A stretch of DNA of 64,000 bases from Amoebophrya sp. A120 (taxonomy: Eukaryota; Protista; Dinoflagellata): positions 466,969-530,968 of the forward strand of contig CAJINV010000004.1 in NCBI GenBank assembly GCA_905178155.1. The letters run 5' to 3'. A program made the position numbers and the translations under genes. Under the pieces are notes generated by a model. That model had not been told where the DNA came from. It did no database searches and saw only the letters and a list, made by a program, of their open reading frames with translations. Positions 910 through 63,900 of this stretch are shown piece by piece (positions within the stretch are counted from its first letter, which is position 1; each line of letters opens with the position of its first letter).

Positions 910-3900
910 TATGCATTGCAAATATGTCTGGGTCTGGAAGTATCCGAACTTGTGATGCGTGTTTCGGATGATCCTACGAAGATCTGCGATGCATAACGTG
1001 CAAAAAGTGCCCACTTCTGGCCATGCTGAGAGGGCATTTCTCATGCAGAACACGCATCACGAAGGAGCTGCAGAACATGTGATGCTAGGCCCTGCATTCC
1101 AGAGGTGGGGGAGCTAGAGCTTGGAAAAACTGCATGACAAATCTCGGAATCTCCCAGACCCAGACATATTTGCATTTGATAGAAGGACAACCAGACCCCG
1201 CCCGACATCGGCGTGGACGTTACTTTCGGCGTGCGCGTGGACCCCGAGAACGTGCCGGCGGTGAACATCGCCTGGAATCCGGTCACTCCTCTGGGAGCCC
1301 AGGCGGTGACGCAACTGCAAAACGCCGTTACCGCTGCCGTCCAAACTGCAAGCGCGAACATCGGCAATGCCAATGTGGGTGTTTCGGTTTCGCAGAATCA
1401 GGGCGATACGGCGACTGTCGCGGTAACGACATCGACGACCACGACGACAACCACCACGACGACCACCACGACTACGACAAAACCATTGCTTAACAAGGGA
1501 CTCGAGATGGTGTTGACCTTCCCCGCGACAGCGAGTCCGGATGAGGTGACAGATGCGCTGAGTGACGCGGATTTGAGTGATGCATTAAAGGATGGCGTTG
1601 TGAAATATTTCGCTGATCAGGGCGTCACTCTCACCGATAGTCAAATTGAAAACCTGGTTGTCACGCAAAAGCCGGGATCCAGCCCGCCTGATGTTGGTGT
1701 GGATGTCACTTTTGGTGTCCGTGTGAACCCGGACAATGTGCCAGATGTAAACATCGCATGGAACCCAGTGACGCCTCTGGAGCAAAGCGATCTCGCATCG
1801 CTCCAAACTGCTTTGACCGACGCGGTCCAGAATTCTGCGGCAAGCATTGGCTCGGGATCTGCAGCAGGCAACGTCGCGGTGTCGCAGACGCAGGGGGACA
1901 CTGCTACTGTCGCGGTGACAACGACGACGAGCACGACGACAGTGGTCACTACAACCACCACGACAACGACGAAGCCGCGCTTGAGCAAGGGGCTCGAGAT
2001 GGTGCTCAATATCCCGGGACAAGCCGCGGATGTCGATGCGGCTTTAGCTGTATGAGAGTGCACAACTCCCCCTCCCCCTTATTTGTATAGCATCAACGGC
2101 AACACAAGCACCAGCAAGAATGCCGGTTGTGCATGACAAATTTCCACTGGATTGTAGTGCTATTTGGGCCACCAGAACTTGTCATGCAAACAGTGCCAAG
2201 AGGCAGAGGGTGGGTCGGGTATTTTGCATGACAAATAAGGGGGAGGGGGAGTTGTGAACTGTCATAAGCTGATCAGGACCTGCAAGATGCGTTAAAAGAC
2301 GGTGTGATTGCGTACTTTGATGGGAAAGGGGTGACTTTAACAACCTCGCAGATTGAAAATATGGTGATCACGCAGAAGGAGAACCAAACACCTCCAGAAA
2401 TCGGCGTGGACATTACGTTTGATGTCGTCGCTGACCCAGCAGATGTTGTGGATGTCAACGTCGCCTGGAATCCTACGATTCCTCTACCCGACCAAGACAT
2501 CTCCGACCTCAACACCGCCGTCACGCAAGCGGTGCAAACGCAAAGCGCAAACATCGGCACGGGTGGCGGGGTCACGGTGTCGCAGAACCAAGGCGACACG
2601 GCAACCGTTGCTGTGACTACCACGACCAGCACGACCTCCGTCGCAGCCACGACCACGACGACGACCACGAAACCGTTATTGAACAAGGGACTCGAGTTGG
2701 TGTTGACCATTCCATCTGGAAACGTCACTGCCGCGCTCGCAGATCCGGTGTTGAGCACGGCGCTGACACAAGGCGTCATCGATTACTTCCAGAATCAGGC
2801 GGGGGTAACGCTTACCCCGGCCGACATCAAGAACTTGGTGATTACGCAGAAGCCAAACCAAACCCCGCCGGCGATCGGCGTGGATATCAGTTTTGACGTT
2901 TCGGTTGACCCGGAAAACGTGCCGGACGTGAACATTGCCTGGAATCCGACGACTCCGATCGGCACCACCGAAACAAATCAACTTCTGTCCACTGTCACGG
3001 CCGCCGTGGCCGCGCAAAGCGGCAACATCGGAGACGGCGGCACGATCTCCGTGCAGCAAACGGATTTGGCGACTGTTCCCGCGACGACGACGACAACCAC
3101 CACAACGAAGGCGGTCCTGTCGCGGGGGCTGACCTTGCAACTGGCAATGACCGCGATATCAACTGCAAAAATGTCTGGGTCTGGAAGATTGCAACTTGTC
3201 ATGCTGTTTTTGGACTTTAAAAAAATTTGTATTCGCATGACCAGCAAGAGGGATCCACTTTGTGCTAAACGGACATGGCATTTCTCATGCGGAAGGTGCA
3301 TCAGGAAGCCCTTTAAAAGTCTGTGATGCTAGGTCATGCATTACAGGCGTCATGGATCATGAGAAATATGCATGACAAATAAGAAGGCACAGATTGTCAG
3401 GGGTGCAGAGCTCAAAAGTCGCTCATTTTCGTTTCGCACGTCGCTCACGGTCCTCCGTGGAATTTTCTCGAGGCGAAAAAAAATGTTTTGGAACGGAAAA
3501 AGACCGCGCCGCGAGTGGCAATCTCTGCCCTTTCCACTCTGAAAAATGCCCAGCCTGTGACAGTATAGATCGGGCTTTTTCAGAAGTAATTAGCGGAAAA
3601 ACAAAAGAGCAAAGTGCCGGGAAAGCGTTTTGAGACTTTTCGAAACGTTAGACAAAAGAACGCAGCACCGCAGTCGCGCCTGCCCTCGCTTGCCCACCCT
3701 TGTTTCTGCGCGACGGCTTTTGGAGAAGCCCCGGGCCCCAATCTCTGGGGCCGCCGGCGGAATTTTCTGTGACAGAGGCTGCAGTGAGGCCTCAATTCTC
3801 TTCGACCTTTTCTCGGGCTCCGGGTCAGAAGATTTCCTCTGAGGCGCTTTTTGCGGCGCCGTGGGTCAAAAAGCGGCAGAATTTGCGCTTTTTGGGCCGC

Positions 3901-6900
3901 GGCGCGCCGAAAAGCGTCTCAGAGGGTGCTTCCGACTCGTGGTCCGAAAACGATTATTCCTCTAGCTCTCGCAGAGAATGTCCGCAAGCGGCTGCGGAAA
4001 TTGGGCTCCGAGGTTTCCTCAGAAAATCTTTCCGTGGAAACGCACTCCGTTCGCGGAGAGCAATTGCCCAGCGAGGGCAGCTGTGGTATGCTGCAACTCG
4101 TCAATGTTTCCGAAAAATTTCAGGCGCTTTTTCTCCTATCTGCATTTGCGTACTTCGCTCTTTGCTTCTGAGAAAATCTGGTCGCCATTCTACACAGATT
4201 GGGGCTTTTTCAGAGGCAAAATGGCAAAAATAGCAACTCGCCGAGCGCTCTTTTGCCATTCCGCAAAAAAAATTTCACGTCTGGAAATTCTCACAGACGA
4301 CCGTGAGCGACGTACGAAACGAATTTGAGCGACTTTGGAGCTCTGCACCCCTGGGCCGCCCGTGCCTTCATAATGACAAATCTTGCATTCTTCCAGACCC
4401 AGACATATTTGCAGTTGATACGCGAGCGACCTGGACGATCCGGTCATCAAGGACGAGCTGGTGGACGCCCTGAAAGACATATGCAACGAAAAAACCATTT
4501 ACAGTTACACATTGACATTGTATTGCAGGCCAAGCAAGACAAACAAGTTCTGTCATGCCGAATATGCTCAAGAGCCTTGCTGAGTGCGTGTGTTCTCTTG
4601 TAGTCTCTGCATTACAAGTTTTCTCTGAGACGCAGATGAATAAGTTTGTGTTGCTAAAGTCGCAACATCAAATGTGTAACACATAGCACTGTTTTCCTTT
4701 GATAAGACGGCATCGTCGACTACTTCAAGGCGACCACCGGCGTGACCCTGGACCCGCAACAACTTGAAAATGTGGTGATCACACCGAAGCCGAACACGAA
4801 TCCAGTGGAAGTCGAGATCACATTCGACGTAACAGCCGACAACCCTTCGCAAGTGACCACCATCGATCTCGCGTGGAGCCCGGATGCTGTCATGCCAAGT
4901 GGCAGTGCGGAGCTCACGACGCTTCTGAACTCGGTGAAGACTTCTGTTGCGGATAGCGCCGCGCTGACAGGGGTGGTGACCGTGGAGGATACCGGGATTA
5001 CGACTGTGATTATCCCGACGACCACTACCACCTCGACCACGACCACGACAAAACCACTCCTCCCAAGAGGTTTGAGTTTGGAGTTAAATCTGCAAGATGC
5101 AGATGTGGACGGTGCATTGTCAGATCCGGACTTCTCAAATGCGGTGAAGGAGGGCATTATCAAGTACTTCCTTGATAGCGGTGTGACGCTTACCGCAGAC
5201 CAGATTGAGAACATGGAAATCCAGCAGACGTCCGGGACGGCGCCGGGCGACGTGGGCATCGAAGTGACATTTGGCGTGCGGGTTGATGATGACGCTCAGG
5301 TGGCTGCAGTCGACACTGCGTGGGACCCGGATACAACATTACCGACAACAGAAGTCGATTCGCTCGTCGACGCTGTGCAGGCCGCTGTGACAACCGCGGC
5401 GGCTAGTGTGCAAACCGGCTTAACCGTGAAAGACACAAACGCGGGCTCTGTCGTGGTGACGACAACAACGACGACGACCACGACGACGACGACCACTACG
5501 ACGCTTCCGTTGTTACAGCGGGGCTTGCAGCTAGACCTGAACATTCCGATCGGGACGACTGTCGACGATGCGTTGCAAGACCCCGCGTTGCAGGATGCTT
5601 TGAAGGCCGGCGTGGTCGCGTACTTTCAAAACGCCACGGGACTGACGTTGTCTGCCAGCGACATCGAGAACATGGTGATCACGCCGCAAACGGGGCAAAC
5701 GCAACCTAGTGTCGGCGTGGACATCACGTTTGGAGTAAGGGTTGAGCCGCAAGATGTCGTCGATGTGAATCTCGCTTGGAGCCCGGTAGTTCCGATGGAT
5801 ACTTCGGAAACGACGGAATTGCTTAATTATGTGAAAGATTCGGTTTCGGATGCTGTCTCTTCCGGAAGCATCTCCGCTACAGCTGGCGTCACCGCCGTGC
5901 AGGACACGGGGATCGCGACGGTTGCAGTGACAACCACTTATGCAGTGCAAGAGTACCGTACTAGTCGTAATCGCATCACAAATTCGCTCAGCATGAGAAA
6001 CGAAACTTGTAATGCGGATTTCCAGTGAGAAAGAGATTTGTAATGCGTGACTGCGCTTAGTGCGACCACGGTACTTTTGCAGTGCACACCAGCACGACAA
6101 CGACGACGACAACAAAAGCACTTTTAGAACGTGGGTTAACGCTCCAACTCGACATCACCGGCGACGTCGACGCCGCGTTAGCCGACACGGATTTGGCGGA
6201 CTCGGTGAAACAGGGCGTGATCAAGTACTTCGAAGCGACAACGGGGATTACCCTGACGGCCCAGGACATTGAGAACATGGTGATCACTCCCGTGAATGGA
6301 ACGAGTAACCCAGTAGAAGTCGACATCACGTTTGCGGTGCGAGTGGACGAGGAAGCCGTGACGCCCGTCAACCTCGCCTGGAACCCGACCACGCCGATGG
6401 ACGCGGGCAGCACGGAACTGGACAAATTGCTGGAAACGGTCAAGACTGTATCAAATGCAAAAATGTCTGGGTCTGGGACGAGATTGCGAGATTTGTCATG
6501 CTAGTCTGGCATGACTCTGAACTCTGTGTTGCATGGCCGCGAAGAGCTCCTCCTCCCTGTCATGCAAAAACGCAGTTTGTCATGCGAAATACGCAACTCA
6601 GAACCATCAAAAAAACTTGTCATGCTTGGCAGCGCATCACAGTGAGTTCACTATTCCCTTTCTTGCATCACAAGTTTCCAGACCCAGACGCAGACATATT
6701 TGCAATGCATAGACCGCGGTGCAGGACAACGCAGCTAGTTTGACCGGAACCGTGACCGTCCGGGACGACGCAAGTGCGGTATCAACTGTGCCCAGCACGA
6801 CGACGACCTCGACGACAACCACCACGCAGGCTGTGTTGTCCCGCTCTCTCACCCTGCAGCTCGACATCACCGGCGATGTAAACACCGCTGTGCAAGATCC

Positions 6901-9900
6901 GGAATTAGAAAACTCCCTGAAAGACGGTATCATCAAGTATTTCGAAACCACCACTGGGATCACATTGACGCCGCAAGAAATCGAAAACATGACCATCACG
7001 CCAGTGCCTGGAACTTCGCCCGTTGAAGTGAAAATCGACTTTGACGTGCGGGTCGACGGGAATGAAGTGACGCCGATCAACCTCGCGTGGAACCCAGACA
7101 CCGCCATGGCTTCCGATAGCACCGAGTATGGGACTCTCAAACGTTACATTCTCAACTGTTGCATGGATTTGTCATGCAAAATTGCCATTGCCCTCCACTT
7201 GATCAAGGTGCTTAGCATGACAAATTTTCGAAGGGCTAAATAGCATGATACTCTGTAGAAAATCTGTGATGCGAAAGTTGCAACGTTGCCACTTTCACTG
7301 TTGCTGTTCTTGCATTACAAACCCATGCAACAGTTGAGAATGTAACATTTGAGAACGCCATACCGAGGTGGAGACGCTTCTAAACACGGTGAAAACTGCT
7401 GTCTCGAGCAACGCAAATCTGCAAAATGTCGTGGTGACAGACGACAAGTCCGCGGTGGTGACCGCGACGACCTCGACTACCACAACGACAAGCACCACGA
7501 CAACCACGGACGGGCTGCTGCAACGCGGGCTGACGTTGCAGCTTGACATCACGAGCACCAACGTGACCGCGGCGCTAGAAGATCCGGACTTGGCGGACTC
7601 GGTGAAGCAGGGGGTTATCAAGTACTTCGAACTAACCAGCGGCATCACGTTCACTCCGCAGGAAATCGAGAACATGGTAATCACCCAGGTCCCCGGGACG
7701 ACTTCGCCGGTTGAAGTAGATATCACGTTCGAGGTGCGGGTTGACCCAACAGAAGTGACGCCCATCAACCTCGCCTGGAATCCCAATACTCCGATGGACT
7801 CCTCCAGTACTGAGCTGGAAACGCTCTTGAGCACGGTGAAAACGGCGGTGGCCGTATCAAATGCAAAAATGTCTGGGTTTGGAAGAATGCAAGATTGTCA
7901 TGCTTGTCTCACATGACGTTTGAATTTGTCATGCACATTACCCAAGAGCCCCATTTTTCTGTCATGCAGACACGCAGTTTGTCATGCAGAATAGGCAACA
8001 CCTAGAAGCTCAGAAGCTTGTCATGCTGAGCCAGCACTTCTTGTGGCCTTCTCATGATACGCCACCCAGCATCACAAGCTTCCAGAACCAGACAAATTTG
8101 CACTTCATAGGCCGACAGTGCCAGCGATTTCTCGCCTTCGACCATCGCCGTAAAGGACAACGCGGCGGCGGTTGTCACGATCTATGGACTGCAAAAGTAT
8201 CGTACTCGTATAAATGCATGACAAATTTCCTCAGCATGAGAAATGAAATTTGTAATGCAGATTTGCCTTGGGAACAAGATTTGTAATGCATGACTTGCAT
8301 TTATACGAGTACGATACTTTTGCACAGGATACGATCACGAGCAGCACTACATCGACCACGACGACGACGTATGCATTGCAAAAGTAACGCACTCGTAGTA
8401 ATTGCTTTGGTGCATGACAAATCTCCTATCTTAGCTCAACCAGCATTACAAATTCCACTTTTCTTCTTGGCGAAATTTGTCATGCTATTTGTTTCTACTA
8501 GTACGATAGGATACTTTTGCAACGCATACGACGACCACCACGACGACGGTGGTGGAGCGGACGTTTGAGCTGGAGCTGAACATTCCGGGGAACGTCGACG
8601 ATGCCTTGAATGACCCGGACCTGAAGGACGCCATGATTGACGGTGTTATCAAGTACTTCGAGCAGAGCACGGGGATCACCTTGACGGATCAGCAAATCGC
8701 GAGCATGAACATCACGCAAAAGAACGGGACAACGGCCGACGCGAGCGGAAATGTGCAAGTGGAGATCTCGTTCGGAGTGTCTGTGAATCCAAGTCAGTCT
8801 ACCGCGGTGAACCTCGGCTGGAGTCCCGACACTGCTATGAGTCCGAACGGAACCGCGATCAGTACCTTGTTGAATAGTGTGCAAACAGCCGTGTCCACGA
8901 ACACCGGGTTGACAAACGTGGTGTCCGTCGACACTGATGCGGACATCGCAACTGTTCCGTCGACCACGACGACGTCCACTACGACTTTGAGCACTATTGC
9001 TGTCAAGCCTTTGCTCACCCGCGGCTTAACCCTGCAGCTCGATGTCACGAGCAGCAACCTGACGGAGTCGCTGCAAGACCCGGACTTGGCGGACTCGGTG
9101 AAAACTGGTGTGATCAAGTACTTTATCAAATGCAAAAATGTCTGGGTCTGGAAGAGTGCAAGATTTGTCATGCATATTTCTCATGACCTATGATGCGTGT
9201 AATGCTTGACTAGCATCGCAGACTTTTAGAGAGCTTCCTGATGCACCTTCCGCATGAGAAATGGCCTGTCTGTGTGGCAAAAACTGTACCCCTCTTGCTG
9301 GTCATGCAATACAAATTTTTTTAGAGTCCAAAAACAGCATGACAAGTTGAAATCTTCCAGACCCAGACATTTTTGCAGTTGATATACTTCGAGCTTACCA
9401 CCGGCATTACGTTGACGGAGCAAGAGATCGAGAATTTGGTCATCACGCAGGTCCCGGGCACGACATCCCCTGTGGAAGTCGACATCACCTTCGGTGTTCG
9501 CGTCGAGGAGAATCAAGTAACAGCAGTCAATCTTGCCTGGAATCCGGACACATCCATGGCTCCTGGTAGCACCGAGTTGGACACCTTGCTCGACACGGTT
9601 AAGACTGCGGTCGCGGACAATGCGGCGAGCTTGACCGGCACTGTCACAGTAAAAGACGATGCGAGTGCGGTGTCAACTGTGCCGAGCACAACGACTAGCA
9701 CGACTACCACGACGACTAAGCCTGTCTTATCTCGGTCTTTAACTCTGCAGCTCGACATCACGGGCGATGTGGCTACAGCGGCGCAAGATCCGCAGCTGGA
9801 GAAATCCTTGAAGAACGGCATCATTGAGTATTTCCAGCTGACGACTGGAATTACTCTGACGCAGGACGAGATTGAAACCATGACAATCACCCCAGTGTCT

Positions 9901-12900
9901 AGAATATCCAAGAAAAAAACTGTGTTAGTGTAGCTGTGTTGGGGTAACAGAATGACAAAGCTGCTCTGCATGACAGAGAAGTCCTATCATGCACAGCTAG
10001 TATGTGAAAAGACGTAAAGGAAACAGGCCACTGAGATTATGGCTGGCCAGTACGACAAGGACAATCAAGCGTAATGCATTTACAGACTTACACTTGCGCT
10101 GTTTTTTTCGTGCATATGGAACCTCCCCGGTTGAAGTGGATATCGACTTCACAGTGAGGGTGGAACCGTCGGAAGTGACGCCCATCAACCTGGCTTGGAA
10201 CCCGAATACCGCCATGGCGGCCAATAGCACAGAGGTGGAAACGCTTTTGAAAACGGTGAAAGCCGCTGTTTCGAGCAACACCAATCTGCAGAATGTTGCG
10301 GTTACAGACGATGTGTTTGGTGTGGTTACCGCAGAGACAACCAGCACGACGACCACGACGAAATCAACTCTTCTTCGCAGCTTCGATTTGGAACTCACCA
10401 TTCCGCAGAACACTACCGTCGCCGACGCGCTTGCGGACCCGGATTTGAAGGATGCTATGATTACGGGTATCATCGATTACTTCGAGGAATCCACCGGAAT
10501 AACTTTGGCTCCAGACCAGATCGCGAATCTGAACATCACGGAGGGTACCACCACTGGGCAAACCGTCGGAGTCACGGTGGATTTTGGTGTCGAAGTCACC
10601 GACGCAGACCAAGCGACCGCGGTCGACCTCGGCTGGAGTCCCACCACGGCGTTACCGACTAACGGCGCCCAAGTCAACGCGTTGCTCGACAGCGTGCAGG
10701 AAGCGGTTGCGGGGAATACTGGCTTGGATAACGTGGTCGAGGTGGAAGACACTGCAAACCTTTCGACTACTCCGGTCGTCACCACCACGACGTCGACCAC
10801 CACAACCAGCACAACGCGGCCGCTGCTGACCCGCGGGTTAGAATTACAGTTGAACATTCCGGGCAACGTGCGCACGGCTTTGTCCGACACGGCGTTACAG
10901 CAGTCGGTGAAGGAAGGAGTTATCGAATACTTCTTGTTGACCGCGGGGATCGAGCTCACCGCCCAACAAATCGAGAACCTCGACATTTCCCAAATCTCCG
11001 GCACTTCCCCGCCGGATATCGGCGCCAAAGTGACCTTCGGCATCCGTTGCAACGAAGACGACGTGACGACCATCAACCAGGTGTGGAGCCCGACCAGCGA
11101 AATCCCGGCGGGGGGTAACGCTTTGAAAACCCTTTTGGAGTCGGTGACCAAGGCGGTAGCCGACAATAGCGGGAATTTAGCGACACCAGTGACGGTGAAA
11201 GACACCGGGATCGTATGGAAAGAAAAAAGTTTGTCACAGTCACTAACTTGGAGGTTTTGCAAATTTTGTGAGCGTCACAAATTTTCCTTGTATTGCAGAA
11301 ACACTACGGAAACCCCGTATGAACTTTGGCTGCGAAGACGCATTTTTACGCATGACTGACAGACATTTCTGTATTGCAAAAATACCCATCTTCAGTGATC
11401 GTGACAAACTTTTTTCTTTTGATAGATTGCGACCCTTCCCGCATCGACGACCACCACGACGACAACGACGAAGGCGTTGCTACCCCGTGGTTTGAATTTA
11501 CAATTACAAATTCCACAGGGAAATAACGTCACCGCGGTCTTGGCTGATCCGAAGCTGAAAGAGTCTTTGGTTTCGGGTATCATCCAATACTTCAAGGAGG
11601 AAGAGGGCATCACGTTGACGCCCGACCAAATCGAGAACCTCGACATTACCCAAACTTCCAGTGGCGCAAATAACGTGGTTGGTGTCCAGGTCACGTTCGC
11701 GGTACGCGCGGAAGATGATACGCAGATTACGCAGATTAACACGGCCTGGAGTCCGGACACGGTTCTGGATCCTTCCGGCACGCAGATTGATAATTTACTC
11801 AATACCGTGAAATCCGCTGTGACGAACAACGCGGCTCTGACCGGGACGGTAACCGTGCAAGACGACGGAGTGGCCACGGTGGTGGTCACGACCACTACAA
11901 CGAGCACCACCACGCTTGCGCCGCCGTTCGAAGCGCAGCGGCAAATCACCTTCACGTTTGACGTGAAGAGTCTGTCCGACGCGGAGGCCAGTACGCTAAT
12001 GACGAACGCAACTTTGCGCGGCGCGATCATGACTGCGATGGAAAATTTCGTGAAGGATACACTGCAAATCCCCGACAATAACGCCCCCGCGATCGGCAGT
12101 GTGCTCTTGCAAATGTTGGGAAAGCAGCAAGCGGACACGGCGGGGGACGATCGCATTACCGTTCAGGTTTTGTTCCGGTTTCAGGATTACGATGAACAGA
12201 AGATCAGTGCTTTGACCAGCAAATGGGACGCGGTACAAGGGTTAAGCGCTAGTGAAGAGACGGATCTGGTCGAGGATCTGCGGGCGGCGATCACGGCTGC
12301 TGGCTTTGCGCTCACCGCGATCCCGGCGGCCGGGGGCCTGCAGAGTCCCACCACGTCGACCAGCACCACGACAACGACCGCGGCAGAAGCGGCGACGACC
12401 ACGACAACGGAAGCCCCGGCGACCACCGCGACTACTACGACAACCGCCGCTCCGGTACTGGAGTTGACGCGGCAAATCACGTTTACCTTTGACTTAGACA
12501 AACTCTCCGAGCAGCAATCTTCGGACATGATGACGGACGACAAGATGAAATCGGCTGTGAGAACCGCGGTGGAGGAATTTCTCCTGTCCACGCTGCTCAT
12601 CGACCCCGCCGACCGGGCGCCGATCGAGTTCGTGGCGCTGCAAAAGTTCAGCCACCAGAAAAACACTCCCCAAACGGACATTGACCGGATCACGGCGCAG
12701 GCCAGCTTTGTGTTCCGATCGACGGACCAAGCGCTGCTGGACAAAGTTTCCGACAAGTGGTCCGCTACTGGCGGTTTGACGGATGCGCAGAAATCCAGTT
12801 TGGTCACCGAGCTGCAGACCGCAATCGCAAACGAAGGCTTTACGGTATCCGCCATCGCCGGCGCGGGCGGGTTAACCAGTCCGACCACGACAAGCACGAC

Positions 12901-51900: not shown

Positions 51901-54900
51901 TTCAAGGTGAAGGGCGATAACGAGACGTTAGCATTGTTGAACCAAACCTGGTCGCCTTTGGCTTTGACCCCGTCGCAAACGGACTTACTCGAAACCTCGA
52001 TCAACGACACTATCATTGCAGCCGCGATACCGGGGGTCCAAGTGCATTACGTCGTGCCACTACCGGCGCCGCCACCGACGACGACCACAACGACGACGAC
52101 AACCACGACGACAACGACGGTGTTGACGAGGATCCGGGAATTCGCCTTGAATTTCACCGTGGATGATAACTACTTCGCATTCGCAGATAGGTCAACTTTG
52201 TTCTCCAATGCGCAACTGTTGAACGCCGTTGCGGACGGGAGCATGAACTTCTTGAAATCGAACGGATTGGTAGACTTGACGAACTCATATCCACAGTAAA
52301 TTTCCCGCACACGTACAAATGCGATCTCTGCATGGCAAAACTTGTCTTCTTTCCTAGTTTAGCATGAGAAGTTTTACACTCCAAATTGGTGAAATTTGTG
52401 ATGCATCTTGTACATGTACGGGAAATTTGTATTGCATAACTCAGCAATGGTGCAGGACACGGTGCTGAATCCGAAAGGGCAGTCCGTAAAGGAAAACTCG
52501 ACGGACTTGTACTACTTGGGAGCCGTGGCGACGTTCACGGTTAGTGGAACGGAATCCACTTTGAACAGCATCGACAACACCGCCTGGACGCCCGCGAACT
52601 TGACGGAGGTGCAGACAAAAGCGCTGCTCGCGGATGTGAATGCTTCCGTTGTCGGCTCCGGATTACAAGGGATTCAAGTAGGGCAAATCATTCCGATGGT
52701 GGCGCCGACGACTACCACCACGACAACTCCACCAACCACTACGACCACATCCACGACGACAACTTCGACGGGGATGATATGGAGTTCTCAAATGTTACAT
52801 TCTCAACTGTTACATGAATTTGTAATGCAAGACTGGCAAAATTGGAAGGAGGAAGAAGATTGCGCCTTTTGCATTACAAGTTTGGCGCAGATTTAGATGC
52901 TGTCTAGCCCTCCCGAAATTTGTCATGGGAAACAGCTCGATCATCTGCCGGCTTAAGGTGCTTTTGCATGGCAAATTCATGTAACAGTTTAGAATGTAAC
53001 GTTTGAGAGCGCCATAGATGATTCTCCGCGAGTTCAATGTGGAGCTGCAGATCAACGAAACCGTGTTCAGCAAGGACTATTTGGATTCCGATGTGAACCT
53101 CATCGCCGCTCTGGCCTCCGGCGCGTACAATTTCTTCATTTCCGCGACCGTGCCGGACATCATCGAGACAGATTTGAAGGACCGGAAAATCACGATCTTC
53201 TCCGAAGTTTCCGCAGGGACACCTTTGTGGGACATGGACATCATTTACGGTTTCAGCATTTCCGGGAACAACGAAACCTTGACAAACGTGAACGACACCT
53301 GGTCGGATGCGGGTTTGGCCGGGAACCAGGAAGTTGCGCTTCAGTACGCGGTGCAGCAGGCGATCACTGGTAGCGGGTTGCAGGGACTCAAAGTAGGCGC
53401 AGTGACCACCGGCCCCGCGCCGACGACCACCACGTCGACAACCACGACGACGAACACGACGACCACAACGACGACGACATTACCGACAGACATGCGGCGG
53501 TTCGATTTGGACTTCACGATCAATGAGAATGTGGTTGCGGATAAACAAGTTCTGCTCACTGATATGCAAGAAAAAAACTGTGTAAGTGTAAATCTGTGAT
53601 GCAGAAAATGCAAAACAGTAACACTCATCATGCTGCAATTGCGTCATAGGCTACTATCACACGTGTTTCCACCACGTACTAGCTGCGCATGACAGGTCCT
53701 CCCTGTCATGCAAAGCGAATTTGTGATGCTGCTCTTCCTACAGAGTTCACTTACACAGTTTTTTTCCTGGATGGCAGACCAGTCCCTGTTGAAGGCGATC
53801 GCGGAGGGGTCGGTGACCTATTTGACCGCGAACGGGTTTATGAACATCAGCAACGACTTTGAAATCTACAACACGACCCTAACGGAGGATCCGAACGCGA
53901 CCAGCACGCTGACGGCCGACCCAACTGCGCTGGACACGATTTTCAACTTCTACCTCCGCGGTCAACCGGATACCATGAGCGATTTGCCGCTTGCTTGGGA
54001 CGCGAGTGGATTAACGGCTCCACAGTTGAAAGAGTTGACAAATGCGGTGAACGCGTCGGTTATCGCTGCCAGCATTGCGGGCGTCAAGGTCGGAAAGATC
54101 GCACCTTTGGTCACCCCGACGACAACCACCACGACGAGCACAACGACCACAACCAACACGACGACAACCACCACGACGACTTCCACGACGACAACCACCG
54201 GTCGCGGGCAGCGTCAGTTCAACGTGACAATTGTGATCGACTCTACTTTAGATCCGAACACGGACGTCGCGTTGGACCCGAACGTTTTGACTGCGTTCGG
54301 GGAAGCTGAGTACGACTATTTAAGGCAGGCGGGGATGATTTCCCTTATCAAATACAAAAGTCTACTCTGGGTCTGGAAGATTCATTGTGAGATTTGTCAT
54401 GCTGATCTGGCATGTTGGCCCTCAAATCTGTATTGCGTGGCCACAAACAGCCTCTCTCGCCTGTCATGCAAAAACGCAGCTTCTCATGCGGAATACGCAG
54501 CACAGAAGCACGAAGCAACTTGTCATGCTTGGCGGCGCATTACAGTGCATTTGTTATTGACTGACTTGCAACACAAGTTTCCAGACCCAGACATTTTAGC
54601 ATTTCATATCCCTGACCTTCTCGCAAATCGAAAACCAAACAATCACGATAGAATCGATTGTCCTATCGGGTTCCGGCGCCACCTACATCGCGAACGCGGT
54701 GTCCAACTTCGACGTTGTGGGTTCTGCGGACAACCTATCAAATGCAAAAGTGTCTGGGTCTGGAAGGTTGCAACTTGTGATGCTGTCTTTGGAAGGCAAA
54801 AACAATCTGTATTGCATGACCAGCAAGAGGAGTTCAGTTTGTGCTACGCGGAGTGGGCGTTTCTCATGCGGAATACGCATCAGAAGGCCCTGCAAAAATC

Positions 54901-57900
54901 TGTGATGCTAGGTCATGCATTGCAGGCATCATGGGTTATGCAAAATATGCATAACAAACCTGGCACTCTTCCAGACCCAGACACTTTTGCACTTGATACA
55001 ACCTCGCGCAGCTAGACAACGCCTGGTCCCCTATCAAGAAGAAAAATCCCCCCTCCCCATATCAAAACGGAAATCTGTGATGCAGATTTGTGGTCACAAA
55101 TCAGCTTTGCCATGCTAGAACGGAAAAGATGCGGACTGTAGTGGTGGTTGGCGTGGGAAAGGGTTGCATCTTCAGCATGACAGGAGGCAGCTGGAAGCGG
55201 GAAACAGCATGACAAATTGCCTGCAAAGGAGGCCACAGCTGCGACTCTTGGCATTCTAGCATTACATACAAGTCGATTTGTGTACTCAAATACAGCAGCA
55301 CAAATTTGGTTTTCGATATGGCTATGGGGAAGGGGGATTTTTCCTTTCGATATCCCCTCTTGCAAACGGGCTGGACAGCAACATGACCAAGAAGCTCGTC
55401 GATTTGATCGACCAGAAAATCGCTGATGCGGGCATCACCGGGATCGATGTGTCCGACGTTGCGCCGGCACCAGCGCCAACGACAACGACCACCACAACCA
55501 CCACGATGGGGATCAATTTCAGGCAATTCGAGATTTACTTGACCATCAACGACACCATTGACCCGGACCAGCTGATTGTCGACCCGGATTTACTCGCCGC
55601 ACTGCAGCTGGGTGAGTTCAACTACTTAGTTGGGTCCGGGATGACGAATTTGACGCTATCTGACATCGTCAACCAAACGATGGAGATTTCGAAGCTGTCG
55701 AACCAAACAACGTTGATGCTCATCGAGGTCGCGAGAAAGAAGGGGAAGTTAGTCGCAAAAGTGATTTCCAAATTCGGAGTTCTGGGTTACCAGCCGACTT
55801 TGGATCTACTGGACCAGATTTGGGACGCGTCCGGGCTGTCGAATGTGCAACTGGAGGCGCTGAAAAATGAGGTGAAAGCGACCGTGACGAACGCTGCCAT
55901 TATGGATTGCAAATATGTCTGGGTCTGGAAGAATTGGAATTTGTGATGCTGTTTTTGGACTCGAAAAAAAATTGTATTGCATGACCAGCAAGAGGGGTGC
56001 AGTTTTTGCTACACGGACAGGGCATTTTTCATGCGGAAGGTGCATCAGGAAGCCCTCTAAAAGTCTGCGATGCTAGGTCAAGCATAACAGGCATCATGGG
56101 CCATGAGAAATATGCATGACAAATGTTGCACTCTTCCAGACGCAGACACTTTTGCAATCCATAGCCATTCCCGGCGTGCAATTCGGTCAAATCGCGTCGA
56201 TCGCGGCGCCAACAACGACGACATCGACGACGACAACCTCAACCACCACTACAACGACTTACGGAACGGAGTTACGGAGGTTCGATATTGACTTCACCGT
56301 GAACGATAACTACTACCCGATTAAGGGGGACATTCTGGATGAGCCGGATTTGATCGACGCCTTGTACGAAGCGTCTTTGGAATTCTTAACAAACAACGGC
56401 TTCGTCAACACCACCGGCACGACCGTATCAACTGCAAATATGTCTGGGTCTGGAAGATTCTAAACTTGTGATGCTGTCTCTGGATTCGAAAAAAATTTGT
56501 ATTGCTTGACCAGCAAGAGGACTCCAGTTTGTGCTGCGCGGAGAGGGCATTTTTCATGCGGGATAGGCATCGAGAAGTCCTCAAAAAATCTGTGATGCTA
56601 GGTCATGCATAACTGGCGTCATGGATCATGATGCAAAATATGCATGACAAACCTGCCAATCTTCCAGACCCAGACATATGTGCAATGCATAGACCGTCGG
56701 GTTGACCAACTTCACGCTTACCGACCGCTACACCGGGGCGCTGGCGAACACGAGCTATCTAGAGGCGGACGTGGTCTTTGGTATCACCGGCTCGGCCGCA
56801 ACCCAAACCTCTGCGGTCGCCGCGTGGAACCCGCAGAATTTAACCGCGAACGCAACCGCAGAGCTGATTGACTTGATCAAGGACAAGGTGGCTGCGACGG
56901 GCCTGATCGGGTTCGAAGTGGGGAAAATCGTGCCAGTGGCAACCCCGACCACGATATCAAATGTAAAAATGTCTGGGTCTGGAAGATTGGAACTTGTGAT
57001 GCTGCATTTGGATTGCAAAAAAATCTGTATTGCATGAGTAGCAAAGGGAATGTGATTTTTGCTACGCGAAGATGGCATTTGTAATGCGGAATAGGCATCA
57101 AGAAGGCCTCAAAAAATCTGTGATGCTAGGGCACGCATCACAGACATCAAGACTCATGCAAAACCTGCATCACAAATCTTGCATTCTTCCAGACCCAGAC
57201 ATTTTTACAGTTGATACACGACCACAACGACGACCACGACAGTGACCAGCACGACAACGACAGTGCTGAACACCACGACAACGACGACCACAACCCGTTT
57301 GTTTGAGGAGCGCGAATTTGAACTGTATTTAACGATTGACGATACGATCAACACAACGGCTATGGGAGTGTCAGGATTGAAATCGACAAAGTTGAAGTGA
57401 TTTGTCATGCATAAAATGGATGCCAGCTGTCACCCAGTTTTCAAATGGCGCATGACAAATTTGGGTAGAGCCATGCTGTTTGGGTAAGGAAGACGCCTTT
57501 TGCCATGCTGTTTGGGTAAGGAAGACGCCTTTTGCCATGCTGTTTGGGTAAGGAAGACGCCTTTTGCCATGCTACTTTACCAGCTCTGCTGCTACCCCTC
57601 AGCAGGCTTTCTAAAATCTGCCTCCCTTGCCAACTCTGCAAGACAGGCATTTTGTGTGTTGCATTTTATGCATCACAAACTATTTCAACTTTGACGATCT
57701 CAATCCTGACGCTTCCATAACGGCTTTAATGGTGGACCCGAACTTGCTGACCGCTCTGGTCGAGGGAACGTGGTCATTCTTCGATCTGGAGCAGACCAAC
57801 GTCACGATTGACATGTTCCAGGAGGAGAATATCCTGTGCAAAAGTATCGTACTCGTAGTAATCGCAATCATGCATTACAGATTTCCATCTCAAGGTAAAA

Positions 57901-60900
57901 CAGCATCACAAATTACATTTGTCACGCTGACCGAATTTGTAATGCGATTTCTACTTGTACGATGCTTTTGCAATGCATAGAGAATTTGATGATCTTATCT
58001 TCCACGAATCAAACAACAGTTGCGGCTGCGAACACTTCCAGTTCGTCTGTCTTGATGCTGGTGCAGGTGGCGAAGAAGAAGGGGAAACTGGTGCTGCAAC
58101 TGGTCTTCAACTTCAAGATCTACGCGGACACACCGACGCTGAACATCGTGGACTCGGTTTGGCTCGACGCTGGCTTGTCTGTGAACCAGGTTTCGAGCTT
58201 GAAGTACGAAATCACCGAAAGTGTAAACAACGCGGGGATCCAAGGGGTCCAGGTGGGGCAGATTTCCTCGGTTGCGGCCCCCACGACGAGCACAACGTAT
58301 GACAGTGGACAACTCCCCCTCCCTCTCATTTCTCATGCGAAATACCCAATCCACTCTTTGCCTCCTGGCACTGTTTGCGTGACAAGTTCTGGCAGCCCAA
58401 AGAGGACTACACTCCATTGCCAACCTGTCATGCAAAGCCGGCATTCTTGCTGATGCTTGTATTGCCGTTCATGCAATACAAATGAGGGGGAGCAGGGGGA
58501 TTAGTTGTGCACTGTCATACAACGAGCACGAGTACGACAAGTACCACGAGCACCACAACGACCACAACGGGCTTCCGGATTCGGCAGTTCGACATTGAAT
58601 TCACCGTGAACTTGACTGTCCATCCGAACAAGGAGGACTTGCTTTCGAACATCAAACTGCTCAAAGCATTATCTGAGGCCAGTGTCTATGCATTGCAAAT
58701 GTGTCTGGGTCTGGAAGGTTGCAACTTGTGACGCGCATTTCACAATACAGACAAATCTCTCATGCATAGGCAGCAAGAGACGTCCACTTTCTGTTACCAA
58801 AGTGGTGAATTTATCATGCGGAGTAAGCAATGCGGAAGCTTCTCGAAATCTGTGATGCTTGAGCTTCTATGACAGACATTCTGTGTCATGCAAAAGCAGC
58901 ATGACTCTTCCAGACCCAGACATCTTTGCAATGCATAGTGTCAACTACTTGAACGCCAATGGGTTTGACAACAGCACGGGGACGGGAAAGCTGATCAACC
59001 AAACGCTGGTGCAGATCGCCAACGCTTCGGCCGCCGCGATGGACCCGTTCTTGCAGACGACGGCAAAATTCGCCATTGTCGGTGACAATCAGACGGTGAT
59101 GTCTGTCGATGCAGCGTGGTCGCCGGGGGTTCTAAACGTGAACCAGACGAAGGATCTCGTCAACGCGGTGAACGCAACCGTGATTGTCGCGAACATCGCG
59201 GGTGTGAAAGTTGGGAAAGTCATTCCAAAAGCGGCCCCGACGACCACGACGACGAGCACCACGCCTGCAGAGACGACGACCACCACTTCGACCACAACAA
59301 CCACTTTGGGTCTGTACTACCGGCAGTTTGTGATCGACCTGACTATAGACGATAGTATCAACAAGACGGAGCTAGCGTCGGACCCGAATTTGCTGACCGC
59401 GTTCAGCCAGGCGAGTTGGGACTTCCTGATCGCGCAGGGCATGACAAATCTCGCCTACGCCCAGATTGAAAAGCAGTCGATCACGATTGTTTCCCAGTCG
59501 GGCAACTACACGACGAACACGTCTGCCGTGATTCTGTTGGAGTTATCCACCAAGCGGGTCAGGAGAGAATTTGTGGAAGTGGTTTCCAGCTTCGCGATTC
59601 GGGGAGACGCGACGCTGAAGCAGGAGCTGGACACGTACTGGAATCCGGTGACACTTTCTTCGAACGAGACGGATACTTTGCAGCAACTGCTCGATGACGC
59701 GGTTTACCTTGCGGGAATTGCGGGCGTGCAAGTAGGACAAATCACCCCGTTGCCCGCGCCGACGACGACCACAACCACGACAACCTCTACGACGACCACC
59801 ACCACGACGACGACGTTGGCGACAGAGACGAGAATCTTTGACATCGACTTCACGGTCGACCCCGGGGTGGATAAAGCTGCGCTACTGTCGAACAGCTCCG
59901 ACTTGCCACAGGCGGTGGCGCAGGGTGCGTTGGACTTTCTCACGGCTGCCGGATTTGTGAATTCCACCGGTGGTGCGGCGGAAGCAGCGGGCTTCGAGTT
60001 GTTACCGTTGAACAACAGCGCCGCTAGCAGTTCGGCGTACCTGGAGACGCAGGGAACGTTGAAATTGAAGGGAGACCCGACTGCGGTTAGTTCTATCGAA
60101 AGCTCCTGGACCGAGCCTCTGTCCGATACACAAACCAAACAGCTCCTTTTATCCTGAGTAAAAACGTACCCACACCAGAGTCAGGATGGGGATTTTGCAA
60201 CACAAACCTAGGGGTTTTGTGAGTCACGCATGACAAGTTGCAGGCTGTATTGTAGTGCAGTTTAGCAAGGGAAGCCGCATAACAAATCCACCTCCTCATC
60301 CTGTTCACAGCATCACAAATTCCAAAACACGATTGGAAATTGCTCTCATGGGGATGCGCATTACAAGTCTTCCTGTCTTTGCAAATCTGCATTACAACTC
60401 TGGTGTGGGTACGTTTTTACTCACGATACCTTTCCGCGATCAACGACACTGTGATAGCTTCCAACATTCCTATGGCGATCTCAACTGTTACATTCTCAAC
60501 TGTTACATGAACTTGTGATGCAAGAACTGGAAAAGTGCAAGGGGGAAGGTTGCACCTGTAGCATTACAAATTCCGCACAGATTTAAGTGCGGTTTGGGCC
60601 TTCGCAAATTTGTCATGCGGAGCAGCTTGATCGTGAGGATGATGATGCTGCTTTTGCATGACAAATTCATGTAACAGTTGAGAATGTAACAATTGAGAAT
60701 CCCATAATTCCTGGCGTGAAAGTCGGCCGGGTGGTGCCCAAAACGACGACCACCACAACGACATCCACCACCACGACCACGACGACTTTCGGTCTGTATC
60801 TCCGGCAGTTCGACATGGATTTAACGATCGACGACACCATCATCACCGACCAGAACGCCGTGCTCACCGATCCGGACGTTTTGAATGGGTTGATGACGGG

Positions 60901-63900
60901 TACGAAAAATTACCTGGTGAACGCGGGTCTAAACATCACGCTCGCGGACATCGAGGACCAGAAGTTAGAGCTCGCCACGAACAGTACCGGCACGCCCTAC
61001 GTCATGCTTTTGCATTTAGTTGCGAAAGCAAAGAAGGCGCATGCTGGTCGGAGGCAGCAGAAAGGGTTGCTCGAAGTCGTTTCCTCTTTCGGCGTCCGCG
61101 GGGACAACGCGACTAGGGACGGATTGAATACCTTGTGGGACCCGAGCGGGTTGTCGGTGAATCAATTACTGATTCTGAAAGACGCTCTGAACACTTCCTT
61201 CACGACACTGCAAATCCCGGGAGTTGTCATCGGAAAAATCGCGTCCATGCCGCAGCCGACAACCACAACGACGACCACCACGTCTATCCACAGCAAATTT
61301 TGTTCCGCACATGACTTTCCAGGGGCGCTGCTGCACGATCACAGAGCTCCTCTCTAACTCTATTTGGCATGACAAACTATCGGCTTGTTTCCATCGATTG
61401 GGACGATTTGTGATGCATTTTGCACATGTGCGGTACAGTTTGTGTTGCATAGCATCGATTGCAAGCAGGACGTTCAACATCGACTTTACGGTGTCAAAGA
61501 TTTTGATTCCGAATTCCGAAAACATCGTTAACTACCCGACTCTGATGGACGCGTTGTCGCAGGGTGTGGAAAAATACATGGAGGACGCGGGGGTGAATGA
61601 AACCTTCGCGGTGGAAAACATGACGCTGAACGTTACTTCTGTCACGAGCGGTGCCATGTCGAACACGGTGGCGACGAAAGCCGACTTCATCTTCGAAGCT
61701 GGCTCTGACACCGGTTTCGCCCAGATCGACTCCGTTTGGGCGGCGCAGTCGACCTTCGACCAGAACGAGACGGACAAACTCCTGGACGCCATCAAGCCGG
61801 AGGTTGCCGTCGCGGCGAACTGCGCCGGCATCACCGTCGGCTCTGTCGCGCCGGTGCCGCAGCCGACGACCACCACAACCACAACGACGACGACCACCAC
61901 AACAACCACGACGCTGCCGCTGATTCATCGAGAATTGGACCTGGATTTCACAGTGAAAAACGGCGTCAATATCACCGCTCTGCCGGAAAACGAAAACCTC
62001 GTCACTGCGTTATCCCAGGGAACCTGGAGCTTCCTGATTGCGGGGAACATGACAGGATTGCCCTTCGACCAGATCGAAAATGACGAATTCAAAGTGCAGT
62101 CGGTGGGGAACACCACCGCGGCAGAGACGATTGTTTCTATCATGTGGCGGTTCGGGGTCCGGTGTGATAGTGCTATGCAAGTCAAATTCGACCAGGCCTG
62201 GAACCCGGTGGGGTTGACGGCGAACGAGACGGCCTCTTACACGAAAAGGCTGAACGCGACGGTGTTCAATGCGGGGATTCAGGGCGTGCAAGTGGGGAAG
62301 ATCACGGCCGTCGCCGTCCCGCCCACAACAAGCACGACCACCACGACCACTATCACGCTTGGGGAGGTCGTTCGGGCGTTTGACTTGGATTTCACGGTGG
62401 ATTCGAACATCATCAGCGACAAAAACGACTTGCTGACCAACCAGGTCTTGCTCGATGCGCTGGCGAAGGGGTCCGCGGACTTCTTGAACAGCAACAACCT
62501 GGTGAACACCAGTGGCCTCGCGGAAATCCGGAACCAAACTTTGACCCTCCGCGCAGGCGCGAGTCAGAGTGGGGACTACCTCGAAACGGTGTCGCAGTTC
62601 ACCCTAGCGGGGGACAGCGCCACTCTCGGGTCGATGCCGGGCGCTTGGCCAGCGGGGACGCTGACGACCGCGTTGACCGAAGCGCTGCAACAAGCGATCA
62701 ACGCGACCGTGATTGCGGCGAACATTGCTGGCGTGAAGGTGGGGAAAATCGCGCCGCTACCGGCGCCGACCACGACCACCACGACGACGACGACAAGCAC
62801 CAGCACCACTACAACGACCACGACCACCACGACAGAAGCGTTAGCCCTCCGCGAGTTCGAGCTGAAGTTAACGGTTGACGACAGCTTGGATATCGACGAA
62901 ACCTTGAAGAACACCACGTTAGTTACTGCGGTCGCGAAAGGGTCGCTGGCATTCTTGGTGAACGCGGGGATGACGGAATTGAATTTCACCCAGATCGAGA
63001 ACCAAACGCTGACTTTGAAAACCGCGAATCCATTCTTGCTCCTAGAAAACGGCCACAGGGTTTCGAAGAAGGCCGTCTACGATGTTGTCTCGAAGTTCGG
63101 TGTGCGGGGTGACAGCCCAACGCTGACCGCCTTGGACATTGCGTGGGACCCGCAGGGGCTGAACAGTACAGAGTTGACGGATCTTTCCGACCGGATCAAA
63201 ACCGCGGTTCTTAACGCCGGGGTCTCCGGGGTGCAAGTCGGGGACATCACGCCCCTGCCTGCGCCGACGACCACCACGACCACAACCACGACAACCACCA
63301 GTACGACCACGACGACAACCACGATCGGAATCGCTTACCGCGAGTTCGATCTGGACTTCACGGTCGACTCGAACGTGATTGCGGACAAGAACACGCTCTT
63401 AACCGACCCGCAATTATTAGACGCGATTTCCGAGGGTAGTTTGGAGTTTATGAAGGCCAACGGGTTGGTGGTCACGACGGCGAACAACGGGTACAGTGCG
63501 CAGATCGAAAACCAAACTCTGAGCCTGAATCCGAGTTCCAGCAATACTATCGCTGGCTATCTGGAAACGGTGTCCAAGTTCGGCCTTCGTGGTGGGAACG
63601 ATTCGATTGCGAGTATGCCGACCGCCTGGCCGGAGCAGACGTTATCGGATGCGCAATTGGAGGAGTTGTCGAAAAAGATCAACGAGTCCATGATCGCCGC
63701 CAACATTGCCGGGGTGCAACTCGGCAAGATCGCGCCAAAACCCGCACCGACGACGACAACAACGACGACGACCACCACGTCGACCACCACGACGACCACG
63801 ACCACTTTCGGCATCGCGGAGAGGATTTTCGATCTCGATTTCACGATCGACTCCGCGCAAATCCCCGACAAGACCGCGCTGTTGACAAACCAAAACCTGA

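Follow-up and report, generated by a model that had tools for sequence, protein, structure and literature searches.

A host gene interrupted by 52 elements

The window analyzed here, a 64,000-nt stretch of Amoebophrya sp. A120 DNA, lies within one host gene (1..64000, + strand) whose frame, at least 15,400 codons long, is open at both window ends: once 52 elements (each with 5 nt) and two long insertions are taken out, one stop-free frame of 15,400 codons is left, and its product consists of repeats with Thr-rich linkers between them. The gene also contains a GT-AG intron with a tandem array (32348..34254, + strand) and a long insertion of non-TAT type (37013..38884, boundaries approximate, no strand assigned), neither of which has an exact copy of the motif TTGTNATGC and both of which serve as negative controls.

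The elements are listed without strand, and the number in brackets after each interval is its count of exact motif copies. Family A comprises E1, 910..1181 (2); E3, 3157..4420 (2), in which a different element is nested at ~3381-4371; E6, 6449..6711 (4); E8, 7855..8109 (5); E11, 9124..9384 (2), which is reversed; E18, 23306..24302 (1), with a different element nested at ~23389-24082; E20, 25174..25464 (2); E24, 30554..30815 (3); E27, 34792..35057 (2); E28, 36152..36427 (1); E34, 50064..50331 (2); E40, 54346..54608 (2); E41, 54736..54998 (2); E43, 55901..56163 (2); E44, 56426..56691 (2); E45, 56955..57216 (3); and E49, 58687..58937 (0, with seven degenerate sites). To family B belong E5, 5939..6088 (3); E9, 8183..8331 (3); E23, 28423..28584 (1); and E31, 46152..46306 (2), together with the reversed copies E10, 8370..8528 (3); E36, 51656..51803 (3); and E47, 57830..57979 (2). 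Family C is represented by E30, 40744..40894 (3, and a further, strong copy occupying terminal nt 4-12); E33, 47734..47883 (3); and the reversed E37, 52288..52438 (1), with E14, 20134..20311 (2, spaced 31 nt), a C-like singleton. Family D includes E2, 2051..2266 (3); E22, 26939..27156 (1); E25, 31780..31986 (2); E32, 46402..46624 (3); and E48, 58298..58519 (0, five degenerate sites). The members of family F are E16, 22236..22524 (3, every site on the + strand); E19, 24358..24638 (2); E29, 39979..40257 (2); and two reversed copies with every site on the - strand, E35, 50572..50859 (0, five degenerate sites) and E50, 60150..60428 (5). Family G has E7, 7127..7362 (3); E38, 52778..53016 (2); and E51, 60471..60706 (4), and family H has E12, 9905..10116 (0, a degenerate site only); E15, 21927..22134 (1); and, reversed, E39, 53563..53773 (1), with E4, 4480..4704 (1), being H-like. 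Family I consists of E26, 34411..34732 (0, six degenerate sites) and E42, 55032..55352 (1). E13, 11214..11424 (0, three degenerate sites) and E46, 57361..57719 (3; numbered E48 in the preliminary description) belong to small families, and E17, 22592..22755 (2), E21, 25938..26135 (1) and E52, 61285..61451 (2) are singletons.

A 5-nt direct repeat flanks all 52 elements, exactly in 35, with one mismatch in 12 and with two in 5 (22 mismatches over 260 positions in the window), and exact flanking repeats of 4, 6, 7 or 8 nt were found around none of the 52. TAT begins 99 of the 104 ends, which makes TAT…ATA a near-universal end type, and the terminal repeats diverge between families only beyond about nt 14; the description of the families as having unrelated ends was therefore wrong. 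In a second assembly, for whose RPB1 the best named relatives are alveolates, nt 11-13 are A in 90-95% of element ends. A GT-AG register is possible in only 2 of the 52 window elements and any near-canonical register in 6. The elements thus have the TAT-type inverted repeat, border direct repeat, non-canonical borders and dispersed repeated families of introners, and they are also short and non-coding, with terminal inverted repeats, a duplication of fixed length and insertion in both orientations, as MITEs are. Clustering, from which E3 and E18 (because of their nested elements) and elements longer than 450 nt were left out, sorted 339 elements into 24 clusters, and in run X1 the summed contig depth over elements was far above that over exons. 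In anatomy the window elements match the published introner elements of Amoebophrya A120; the elements themselves were already known.

An internal motif that is enriched and conserved across families

The motif TTGTNATGC has 107 exact matches in the window where 2.3 are expected (shuffle mean; maximum 6), and 105 of these are inside the 52 elements (12,072 nt; 8.7 per kb), whereas shuffling element sequence alone gave 1.5 matches (maximum 5). The exons have 2 matches in 46,464 nt; the two elements of other kinds that are nested in E3 and E18 (1,685 nt), the pair of long insertions of non-TAT type (3,779 nt) and five GT-AG introns of locus L062 have none. At least one exact copy is present in 46 of the 52 elements and a weight-matrix site in every one; the consensus, (A/G)(T/C)(T/C)TGTVWTGC, occurs in several copies per element, and sites are also spread through element interiors. 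At the N of the motif, the elements have C in 57 copies, G in 24, A in 22 and T in 2. The recurrence across families proposed from initial inspection is thus upheld, as are all six of its examples, at 3196 (+), 7169 (+), 22267 (+; given then as 22268), 2226 (-), 40778 (-) and 57402 (+). The accompanying statement that one copy usually lies near each end holds for 47 of 52 elements if degenerate sites are admitted, but only 22 have an exact copy no more than 60 nt from each end.

The excess over background recurs in the second assembly, where the motif is present in 275 of 289 elements that were found without using it (the shuffled control for element finding yielded 1 element versus 296), at 8.4 matches per kb inside element-like sequence versus 0.19 outside. 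Of the 24 clusters of the 339 elements, 21 have the motif in a majority of members. Conservation is 0.90 at the motif versus 0.73 at other internal columns, with the motif higher in nine families of nine. Private differences affect 3.4% of positions in sites versus 8.5% elsewhere, a deficit that either selection for transposition or selection on inserted copies could produce. When sites and outer ends are masked, the family representatives barely align, z exceeding 3 in only 5 of 66 pairs (median z 0.55), so the prospect that the families might be alignable descendants of one element with no extra conservation at the motif did not materialize. Because the motif is above background and extra conserved in all nine families while the masked representatives barely align, a single trans-acting factor for all families, as originally suggested, is a reasonable inference; the part of that suggestion that names a transposase stays inferred, since the factor itself was not found in the frames and loci searched.

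Those searches found no transposase or integrase family among 250 frames of at least 170 aa from related loci, and no autonomous element or transposase in ~0.7 Mb of related loci. Of 110 frames listed within long elements and insertions, 39 were searched and likewise yielded no transposase or integrase family. The stretch L016:505-1608 is a family end with a nested repeat, and a homologue search with L021:972-1382 gave none. The family-A end pattern had no match among viral contigs, and the scattered single matches of a 16-nt end word in prokaryote genomes, estimated at ~240 where the size of the collection predicts roughly 280 by chance, were taken to be noise.

Spacing of sites and a terminal copy

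Same-strand pairs of sites 31-32 nt apart occur in 9 of 14 window groups (mean 8.1 versus a null of 0.9, maximum 4; E3 and E18 were left out of this test) and in 15 of 20 clusters of the second assembly, although family G has no such pair. Outside any family, 6 of 21 same-strand pairs have this spacing versus 0.6 expected; a spacing of 31-33 nt persists in sequence resembling no family, and regular spacing is also kept in elements with poor terminal repeats. A degenerate copy of the motif often occupies terminal nt 4-12: with a leave-one-family-out matrix, 22 of 40 family ends score best when the site starts at nt 4, versus 1.8 among shuffled ends. Four singleton clusters with A- or B-type ends were dropped from this comparison, and its shuffle control relied on a single matrix throughout. 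On average the terminal copy scores weakly (mean -6.1), and in many ends the match is poor. The first inner site lies at 32-34 or 42-44 when pointing one way and at 34-37 or 43-52 when pointing the other, depending on the family, a variation in distance and direction that would not be expected of a rigid end complex. A strict 10.5-nt phase relative to the ends could not be told apart from the neighboring periods of 9 to 11.5.

Probable removal of elements from the transcript

At locus L062, contigs from probable RNA runs are missing the element along with 5 nt in 7 of the 9 sites; the source strain differs by 2-3%, so that these gaps could be empty alleles. On window positions 1-12000, exon coverage by the RNA-run contigs is nil, which says nothing about splicing of the host gene. 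The element sites in RPB1 tolerate no extra residue. The NT-AN borders of PMC7789003 Table S4 prompted consideration of a splice that cuts one base outside each end, leaving 3 extra nt and keeping the frame, yet this is disfavored: RPB1 blocks that are free of gaps would gain a residue, and the contig pieces displayed have no such insertions. Ciliate-like excision from DNA is also disfavored, as contigs of run X1, among the joints listed, run from unique flanks into element ends with the depth of a single copy.

Discussion

On the preferred reading, the 52 elements are short non-coding mobile elements, and TTGTNATGC is a likely double-stranded DNA site for one protein. What is new here is the conservation of the motif, the 31-32-nt pairing, the terminal copy and the recurrence in a second assembly. 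The site is conserved above its flanks, independent of strand and regularly spaced, as would suit a transposase site, and the balance tips modestly towards its being bound by one transposase shared by all families, of an IS3EU/GingerRoot-like type as judged by the TA termini, though with a duplication of 5 rather than 6 bp. The 5-nt repeat would then be the target-site duplication left by a DDE enzyme, and paired sites about three helical turns apart might let protein subunits assemble along the same side of the helix and draw the two ends into contact. Elements retaining the site would multiply more, conserving it while the spacers drift into separate families. Separately, the transcript would drop each element and one repeat, a process in which the site need not take part.

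The preliminary description had left open whether the factor acts on DNA or on RNA, and of these the DNA level is now favored. It is very improbable that the motif is an RNA signal, with inverted copies pairing into an intron hairpin of the kind proposed in PMC7789003 or with a single-strand RNA-binding protein reading the copies. In predicted RNA folds, motif bases are indeed paired at 0.78 versus 0.59 elsewhere, with 47% of motif pairing being with another copy, but 14 of 52 folds make pairing of the ends unlikely, and the compensatory change between partners expected of a hairpin was not found: matching N bases number 711 versus 799 expected across 42 opposite-strand site pairs, and in the mirror sites of family A 38 versus 41. 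Family F, moreover, has all of its strong sites on one strand, with no strong partner on the other, and yet is inserted in both orientations in the same frame; it is this, with the lack of co-variation, that argues for a double-stranded DNA site. The changes that sites do tolerate are position-specific transversions (G to C at position 3, A to T at position 6), and N is seldom T (26 of 1,200), as if T were avoided there, which also speaks against an RNA signal. Still more doubtful is the idea that the motif is a functionless leftover of one ancestral repeat module inherited by all families. Remote common descent is itself likely, given one end type across all families, and would fit the local matches of 17-71 nt, centered on sites, that are common to 15 of 78 window group pairs, the slight excess of spacer similarity (0.35 versus 0.29 shuffled) and the few masked family pairs that still align. 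The greater conservation of sites than of spacers in all nine families largely refutes a lack of function, in keeping with the lower rate of private differences and with a spacing that is kept where spacer sequence mostly is not.

A host or domesticated protein might instead bind the site on DNA and earmark the element to be taken out of the transcript while this is nascent, making the site a splicing mark instead of, or besides, a transposition site. The frame needs every element out, even at RPB1 sites intolerant of extra residues, and yet canonical registers are rare; GT-AG introns are without the site; spaced sites persist outside families and in elements with poor terminal repeats; U1 snRNA is reported as undetected (PMC7789003); and indifference to strand would suit any DNA-bound factor. 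On the other hand, the 3.4% of private differences in sites is compatible with neutral change after insertion, as gauged by the 22 mismatches over 260 repeat positions, and the six window elements without an exact site must still be removed; we regard a splicing mark as unlikely in either form. That a host DNA-binding or DNA-bending protein other than the transposase occupies the sites, aiding transposition or shielding elements from silencing, seems improbable: the variable geometry relative to the ends, the sites throughout the interior and the failure to find a transposase in the frames searched would agree with it, but the site is almost confined to elements and a degenerate copy adjoins the end, as in end recognition. 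It is tempting to speculate that one DNA-bound protein, a transposase or its domesticated copy, both mobilizes the elements and tags them so that they are cut precisely out of the transcript, a combination that we consider distinctly unlikely. If it were so, it would explain how tens of thousands of non-GT-AG introns are tolerated, and would amount to a transposon-supplied, DNA-templated intron code in a genome in which U1 snRNA has gone undetected.

The preferred reading, a site for a shared transposase, brings some practical handles to the question of how the non-canonical introns of Amoebophrya spread and leave the transcript. That end type, duplication length and spaced internal site are all shared speaks for one mobile system, versus the ~1,950 published families. 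Paired sites could be used as bait in protein pull-downs, and mutations in the site could separate transposition from splicing. An autonomous element would be expected to combine TAT…ATA ends, a 5-bp duplication and site arrays with a long frame, and the first three of these would also aid annotation of the introns.

Comparison with known systems

The introner elements of A120 have been described as non-canonical introns of ~240 nt with inverted repeats consisting of TAT, seven variable bases and then As, accompanied by short direct repeats of 3-5 nt, and were sorted by inverted repeat into 1,954 families (Farhat et al., 2021; PMC7789003). The window elements and the related loci share the TAT ends and short direct repeats, but here the repeat has one length, 5 nt, throughout, the stretch of seven variable bases and following As can often be read as a degenerate copy of the internal site, and the sites are regularly spaced. 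Its available text reports no transposase, rejects general transposase-mediated mobilization and does not name the TTGTNATGC motif; we found no title or abstract on the motif, and full-text matches to the motif words were, among the matches listed, to unrelated papers only. A later survey classes A120 introner family 38 as Ginger-like, with '5-bp TSD, TA/TA Termini' (supplement row 580), and most of the other A120 entries examined as 'TIR DNA, Unknown', and it ascribes diverse origins to the families (Gozashti et al., 2025; PMC12130899). Family 38 resembles the elements here in its duplication, its termini and its terminal repeats of ~50 nt, but at ~810 nt it has frames like Copia/Gypsy integrase regions, whereas the elements here are without a recognizable frame. 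In contrast to diverse origins, the common site across families suggests one system.

The TA..TA termini are also those of IS3EU and GingerRoot elements, which have integrase-like enzymes (PMC10045372; PMC6839031; PMC12730594), and the fungal IS3EU end TAYGG resembles one end variant here. Their duplication is 6 bp, unlike the 5 bp here (exact 6-nt repeats flank 0 of 52 elements and exact 5-nt repeats 35), and the spaced internal site that is present here was not found in their published descriptions, as far as these were available. A precedent for the internal sites is the Emigrant/Lemi1 system, in which the transposase binds the subterminal repeats of a MITE cooperatively (PMC1636448) and which likewise has non-autonomous elements with internal repeated motifs. 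Emigrant, though, is a single pogo-like MITE family whose members are not introns, whereas here one site spans ~20 clusters, difficult to align in other respects, and does so within coding sequence.

Results

The nine-letter motif TTGTNATGC, in which N is a free position, has 107 exact matches in the window where 2.3 are expected (at most 6 in 100 shuffles), and all but the 2 in exons fall within the 52 short TAT…ATA elements (E1–E52) that interrupt the one giant gene, 105 in total; the recurrence across families claimed in the preliminary description is thus upheld, and its six example positions are all present. Its further statement that copies lie near each end depends on the criterion, as exact copies lie near both ends in only 22/52 elements whereas weight-matrix sites do so in 47/52. 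At least one exact motif occurs in 46/52 elements and weight-matrix sites in all 52, for which boundaries came from a reading of the whole window with inverted repeats located by script. The exact motif is absent from two long insertions in the window and from two nested foreign elements, repeats with ends of their own at 3381–4371 and 23389–24082. Similar repeat elements with their own ends lie at about 3990–5130 of L062, a locus of a second, related assembly, and inside two other loci of that assembly (L016:505–1608 and L075:6553–7700); some of these various elements are nested in TAT elements.

The families had been described as having unrelated ends, but the ends are in fact related, since 99 of 104 start with TAT and a 5-nt direct repeat flanks every element (perfect in 35, with a single mismatch in 12 and two mismatches in 5); exact flanking repeats of 4, 6, 7 or 8 nt were found at 0/52. 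Cutting each element with 5 nt, together with a GT-AG intron that holds a 29-nt tandem array (32348–34254) and a long insertion bounded by 21-nt inverted ends of its own and containing a 96–99-nt array (about 37013–38884), neither of which matched a transposase family, leaves one stop-free frame of 15,400 codons. The frame is stop-free only when the element plus 2, 5 or 8 nt is removed, and a GT-AG register is possible in just 2/52 elements. In the 17 elements with mismatched repeats, 13 of 22 mismatches are synonymous against 6.6 expected under a calculation that does not model transition bias, and coding constraint may act on both repeat copies, as though the position of the cut varied within the repeat. 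The host protein (window 1–64000, + strand), at least 15,400 aa long and 19% Thr, with 115 Thr/Ser runs between repeated domains, looks like a giant mucin-like surface protein; Pfam returned nothing useful for two pieces of it.

A second sample, biased to family A and to exact repeats, consists of 146 loci from one other assembly, in which the best named relatives of RPB1 are alveolates; the loci were retrieved by scanning for family-A ends with a pattern free of the motif. Within them, a separate motif-blind finder identified 296 elements, compared with 1 in shuffled loci, and 275 of the 289 short elements carry the exact motif. Motif density, with overlapping loci counted, is 8.4 per kb inside element-like sequence and 0.19 outside. 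When 339 elements (second assembly plus 50 from the window) were grouped into 24 clusters, the motif was present in most members of 21. At L023:11473–11726 and nearby are elements that contain the motif and combine TAT…ATA ends with an exact 5-nt repeat, yet their termini are poorly complementary and they match no family. An 834-nt element at L021:632–1465 joins family-A ends to about 600 nt of unrelated interior, for which no protein homologue was found; it is near published A120 family 38 in size.

Motif columns are more conserved than other inner columns in all nine aligned families (pooled 0.90 vs 0.73), and single-copy differences affect 3.4% of motif positions and 8.5% of others, with P values that are nominal because columns and copies are not independent. 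The preliminary description had offered alignable descent from one element as the alternative; with sites and outer ends masked, however, only 5/66 family pairs align above z=3 (median z 0.55), and the unmasked matches between families (15/78 pairs) are short and centred on sites. Remote common descent of the families is likely, but it does not account for the extra conservation of the site.

Same-strand pairs of sites 31–32 nt apart occur in 9/14 window groups; with one member drawn per group there are 8.1, against 0.9 for random placement and a maximum of 4 in 2,000 draws. Such pairs are also found in most members of 15/20 second-assembly clusters; of the 21 same-strand pairs in sequence that resembles no family, 6 have this spacing where 0.6 are expected. 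The spacers between sites are only slightly alike across families (0.35 vs 0.29). One 109-nt family consists almost entirely of its two ends and a single pair of this kind. Since three turns of B-DNA measure about 31.5 bp, we infer that paired sites would present the same helical face to a bound protein. When ends were scored with a matrix derived from the internal sites of the remaining families, the best terminal offset was nt 4 in 22/40 family ends (1.8 when shuffled), so that the published end pattern 'TAT, seven variable bases, As' can often be read as TAT plus a degenerate GCATNACAA. Several observations count against a simple model: the match at nt 4 is weak on average, the first inner sites vary between families in distance and direction, a 10.5-nt period in site positions is not singled out, and family G has no 31–32-nt pair. 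At family A ends, nt 4–7 switch among a few types, independently at both ends, and nt 11–28 are 94% conserved.

Discussion

The preliminary description left open whether a factor acts on DNA or on RNA, and the DNA option is favoured over the RNA one by two observations. The first is that seven families are present in both orientations within the single gene; in family F, where one strand holds every strong site, E16, E19 and E29 carry TTGTNATGC on the sense strand and E35 and E50 only its complement. The second is that the free N does not co-vary between pairable copies (711 matches vs 799 expected, 42 site pairs). Co-variation between the two ends is likewise absent from the variable outer bases of family A; in families H and F the left and right ends are correlated to some degree at these bases, perhaps through subfamily structure. 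Motif bases are paired more often than others in predicted folds (0.78 vs 0.59), which in such models is what any inverted copies would give. On balance, the motif appears to be a double-stranded DNA site, with a putative binding protein.

RNA runs gave no exon coverage of the window gene. For L062, which carries RPB1, 7 of the 9 elements detected are skipped, each with exactly 5 nt, in contigs from three probable RNA runs of one sample, the remaining two being one inside a GT-AG intron and one whose joint is undisplayed. As these contigs are 2–3% different from L062, the skipped elements may instead be alleles without insertions; spliced or empty, the uninterrupted sequence retains a single repeat copy. 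Removal of the element plus 5 nt rejoins the protein without a gap at the five RPB1 junctions that have reference matches; a cut leaving 3 extra nt would add a gap there and is disfavoured. Elements at L062:7992–8253 and 9015–9986 lie within the most conserved RPB1 stretches, which we take to be the bridge helix and the base of the trigger loop; removal must therefore be exact if the gene is functional. The exact motif is absent from five GT-AG introns of L062 RPB1. Several GT-AG introns (in L062, and at window 32348) have the canonical donor GTATA, similar in sequence to an element end read as N plus TAT, and this likeness may be linked to the NT-AN borders that Table S4 of PMC7789003 often lists.

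We lean, with some reserve, towards the view that the families are non-autonomous and share a single mobilising DDE enzyme, which would recognise the TAT ends, load on the paired sites and leave a 5-bp duplication upon transposition, with removal from RNA a separate step. Searches of about 0.7 Mb of related loci turned up no transposase, and PMC7789003 likewise reports none in A120. It is also conceivable, if rather unlikely, that the elements are marked for splicing by a factor bound to DNA, either a host protein or a domesticated one: elements whose terminal repeats are poor still keep their sites, and private differences cannot separate selection for such a factor from selection for transposition.

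How does a single mobilising DDE enzyme fit with known systems? The window elements match the A120 introner elements of Amoebophrya described in PMC7789003; the elements themselves are already known. They share TA..TA termini with IS3EU/GingerRoot, as portrayed in sections of PMC10045372, PMC12730594 and PMC6839031, but are not classed there because those elements make a 6-bp duplication and the repeats here are 5 nt. One candidate relative appears among 38 of the 58 A120 rows of the PMC12130899 supplement: a family whose frames are integrase-like, with TA/TA termini and a 5-bp duplication. A MITE offers a precedent for subterminal binding repeats (PMC1636448). The internal site, its spacing and the terminal copy were not found in the text available for PMC7789003 (whose figures S19–S25 may show the site), PMC12130899 or PMC1636448, in the portions available of PMC10045372, PMC12730594, PMC6839031, PMC11282704 and PMC12005148, or in wider literature searches. 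Set beside these systems, the site is real, conserved and spaced; it brings known introner families together and opens their mobilisation to testing.
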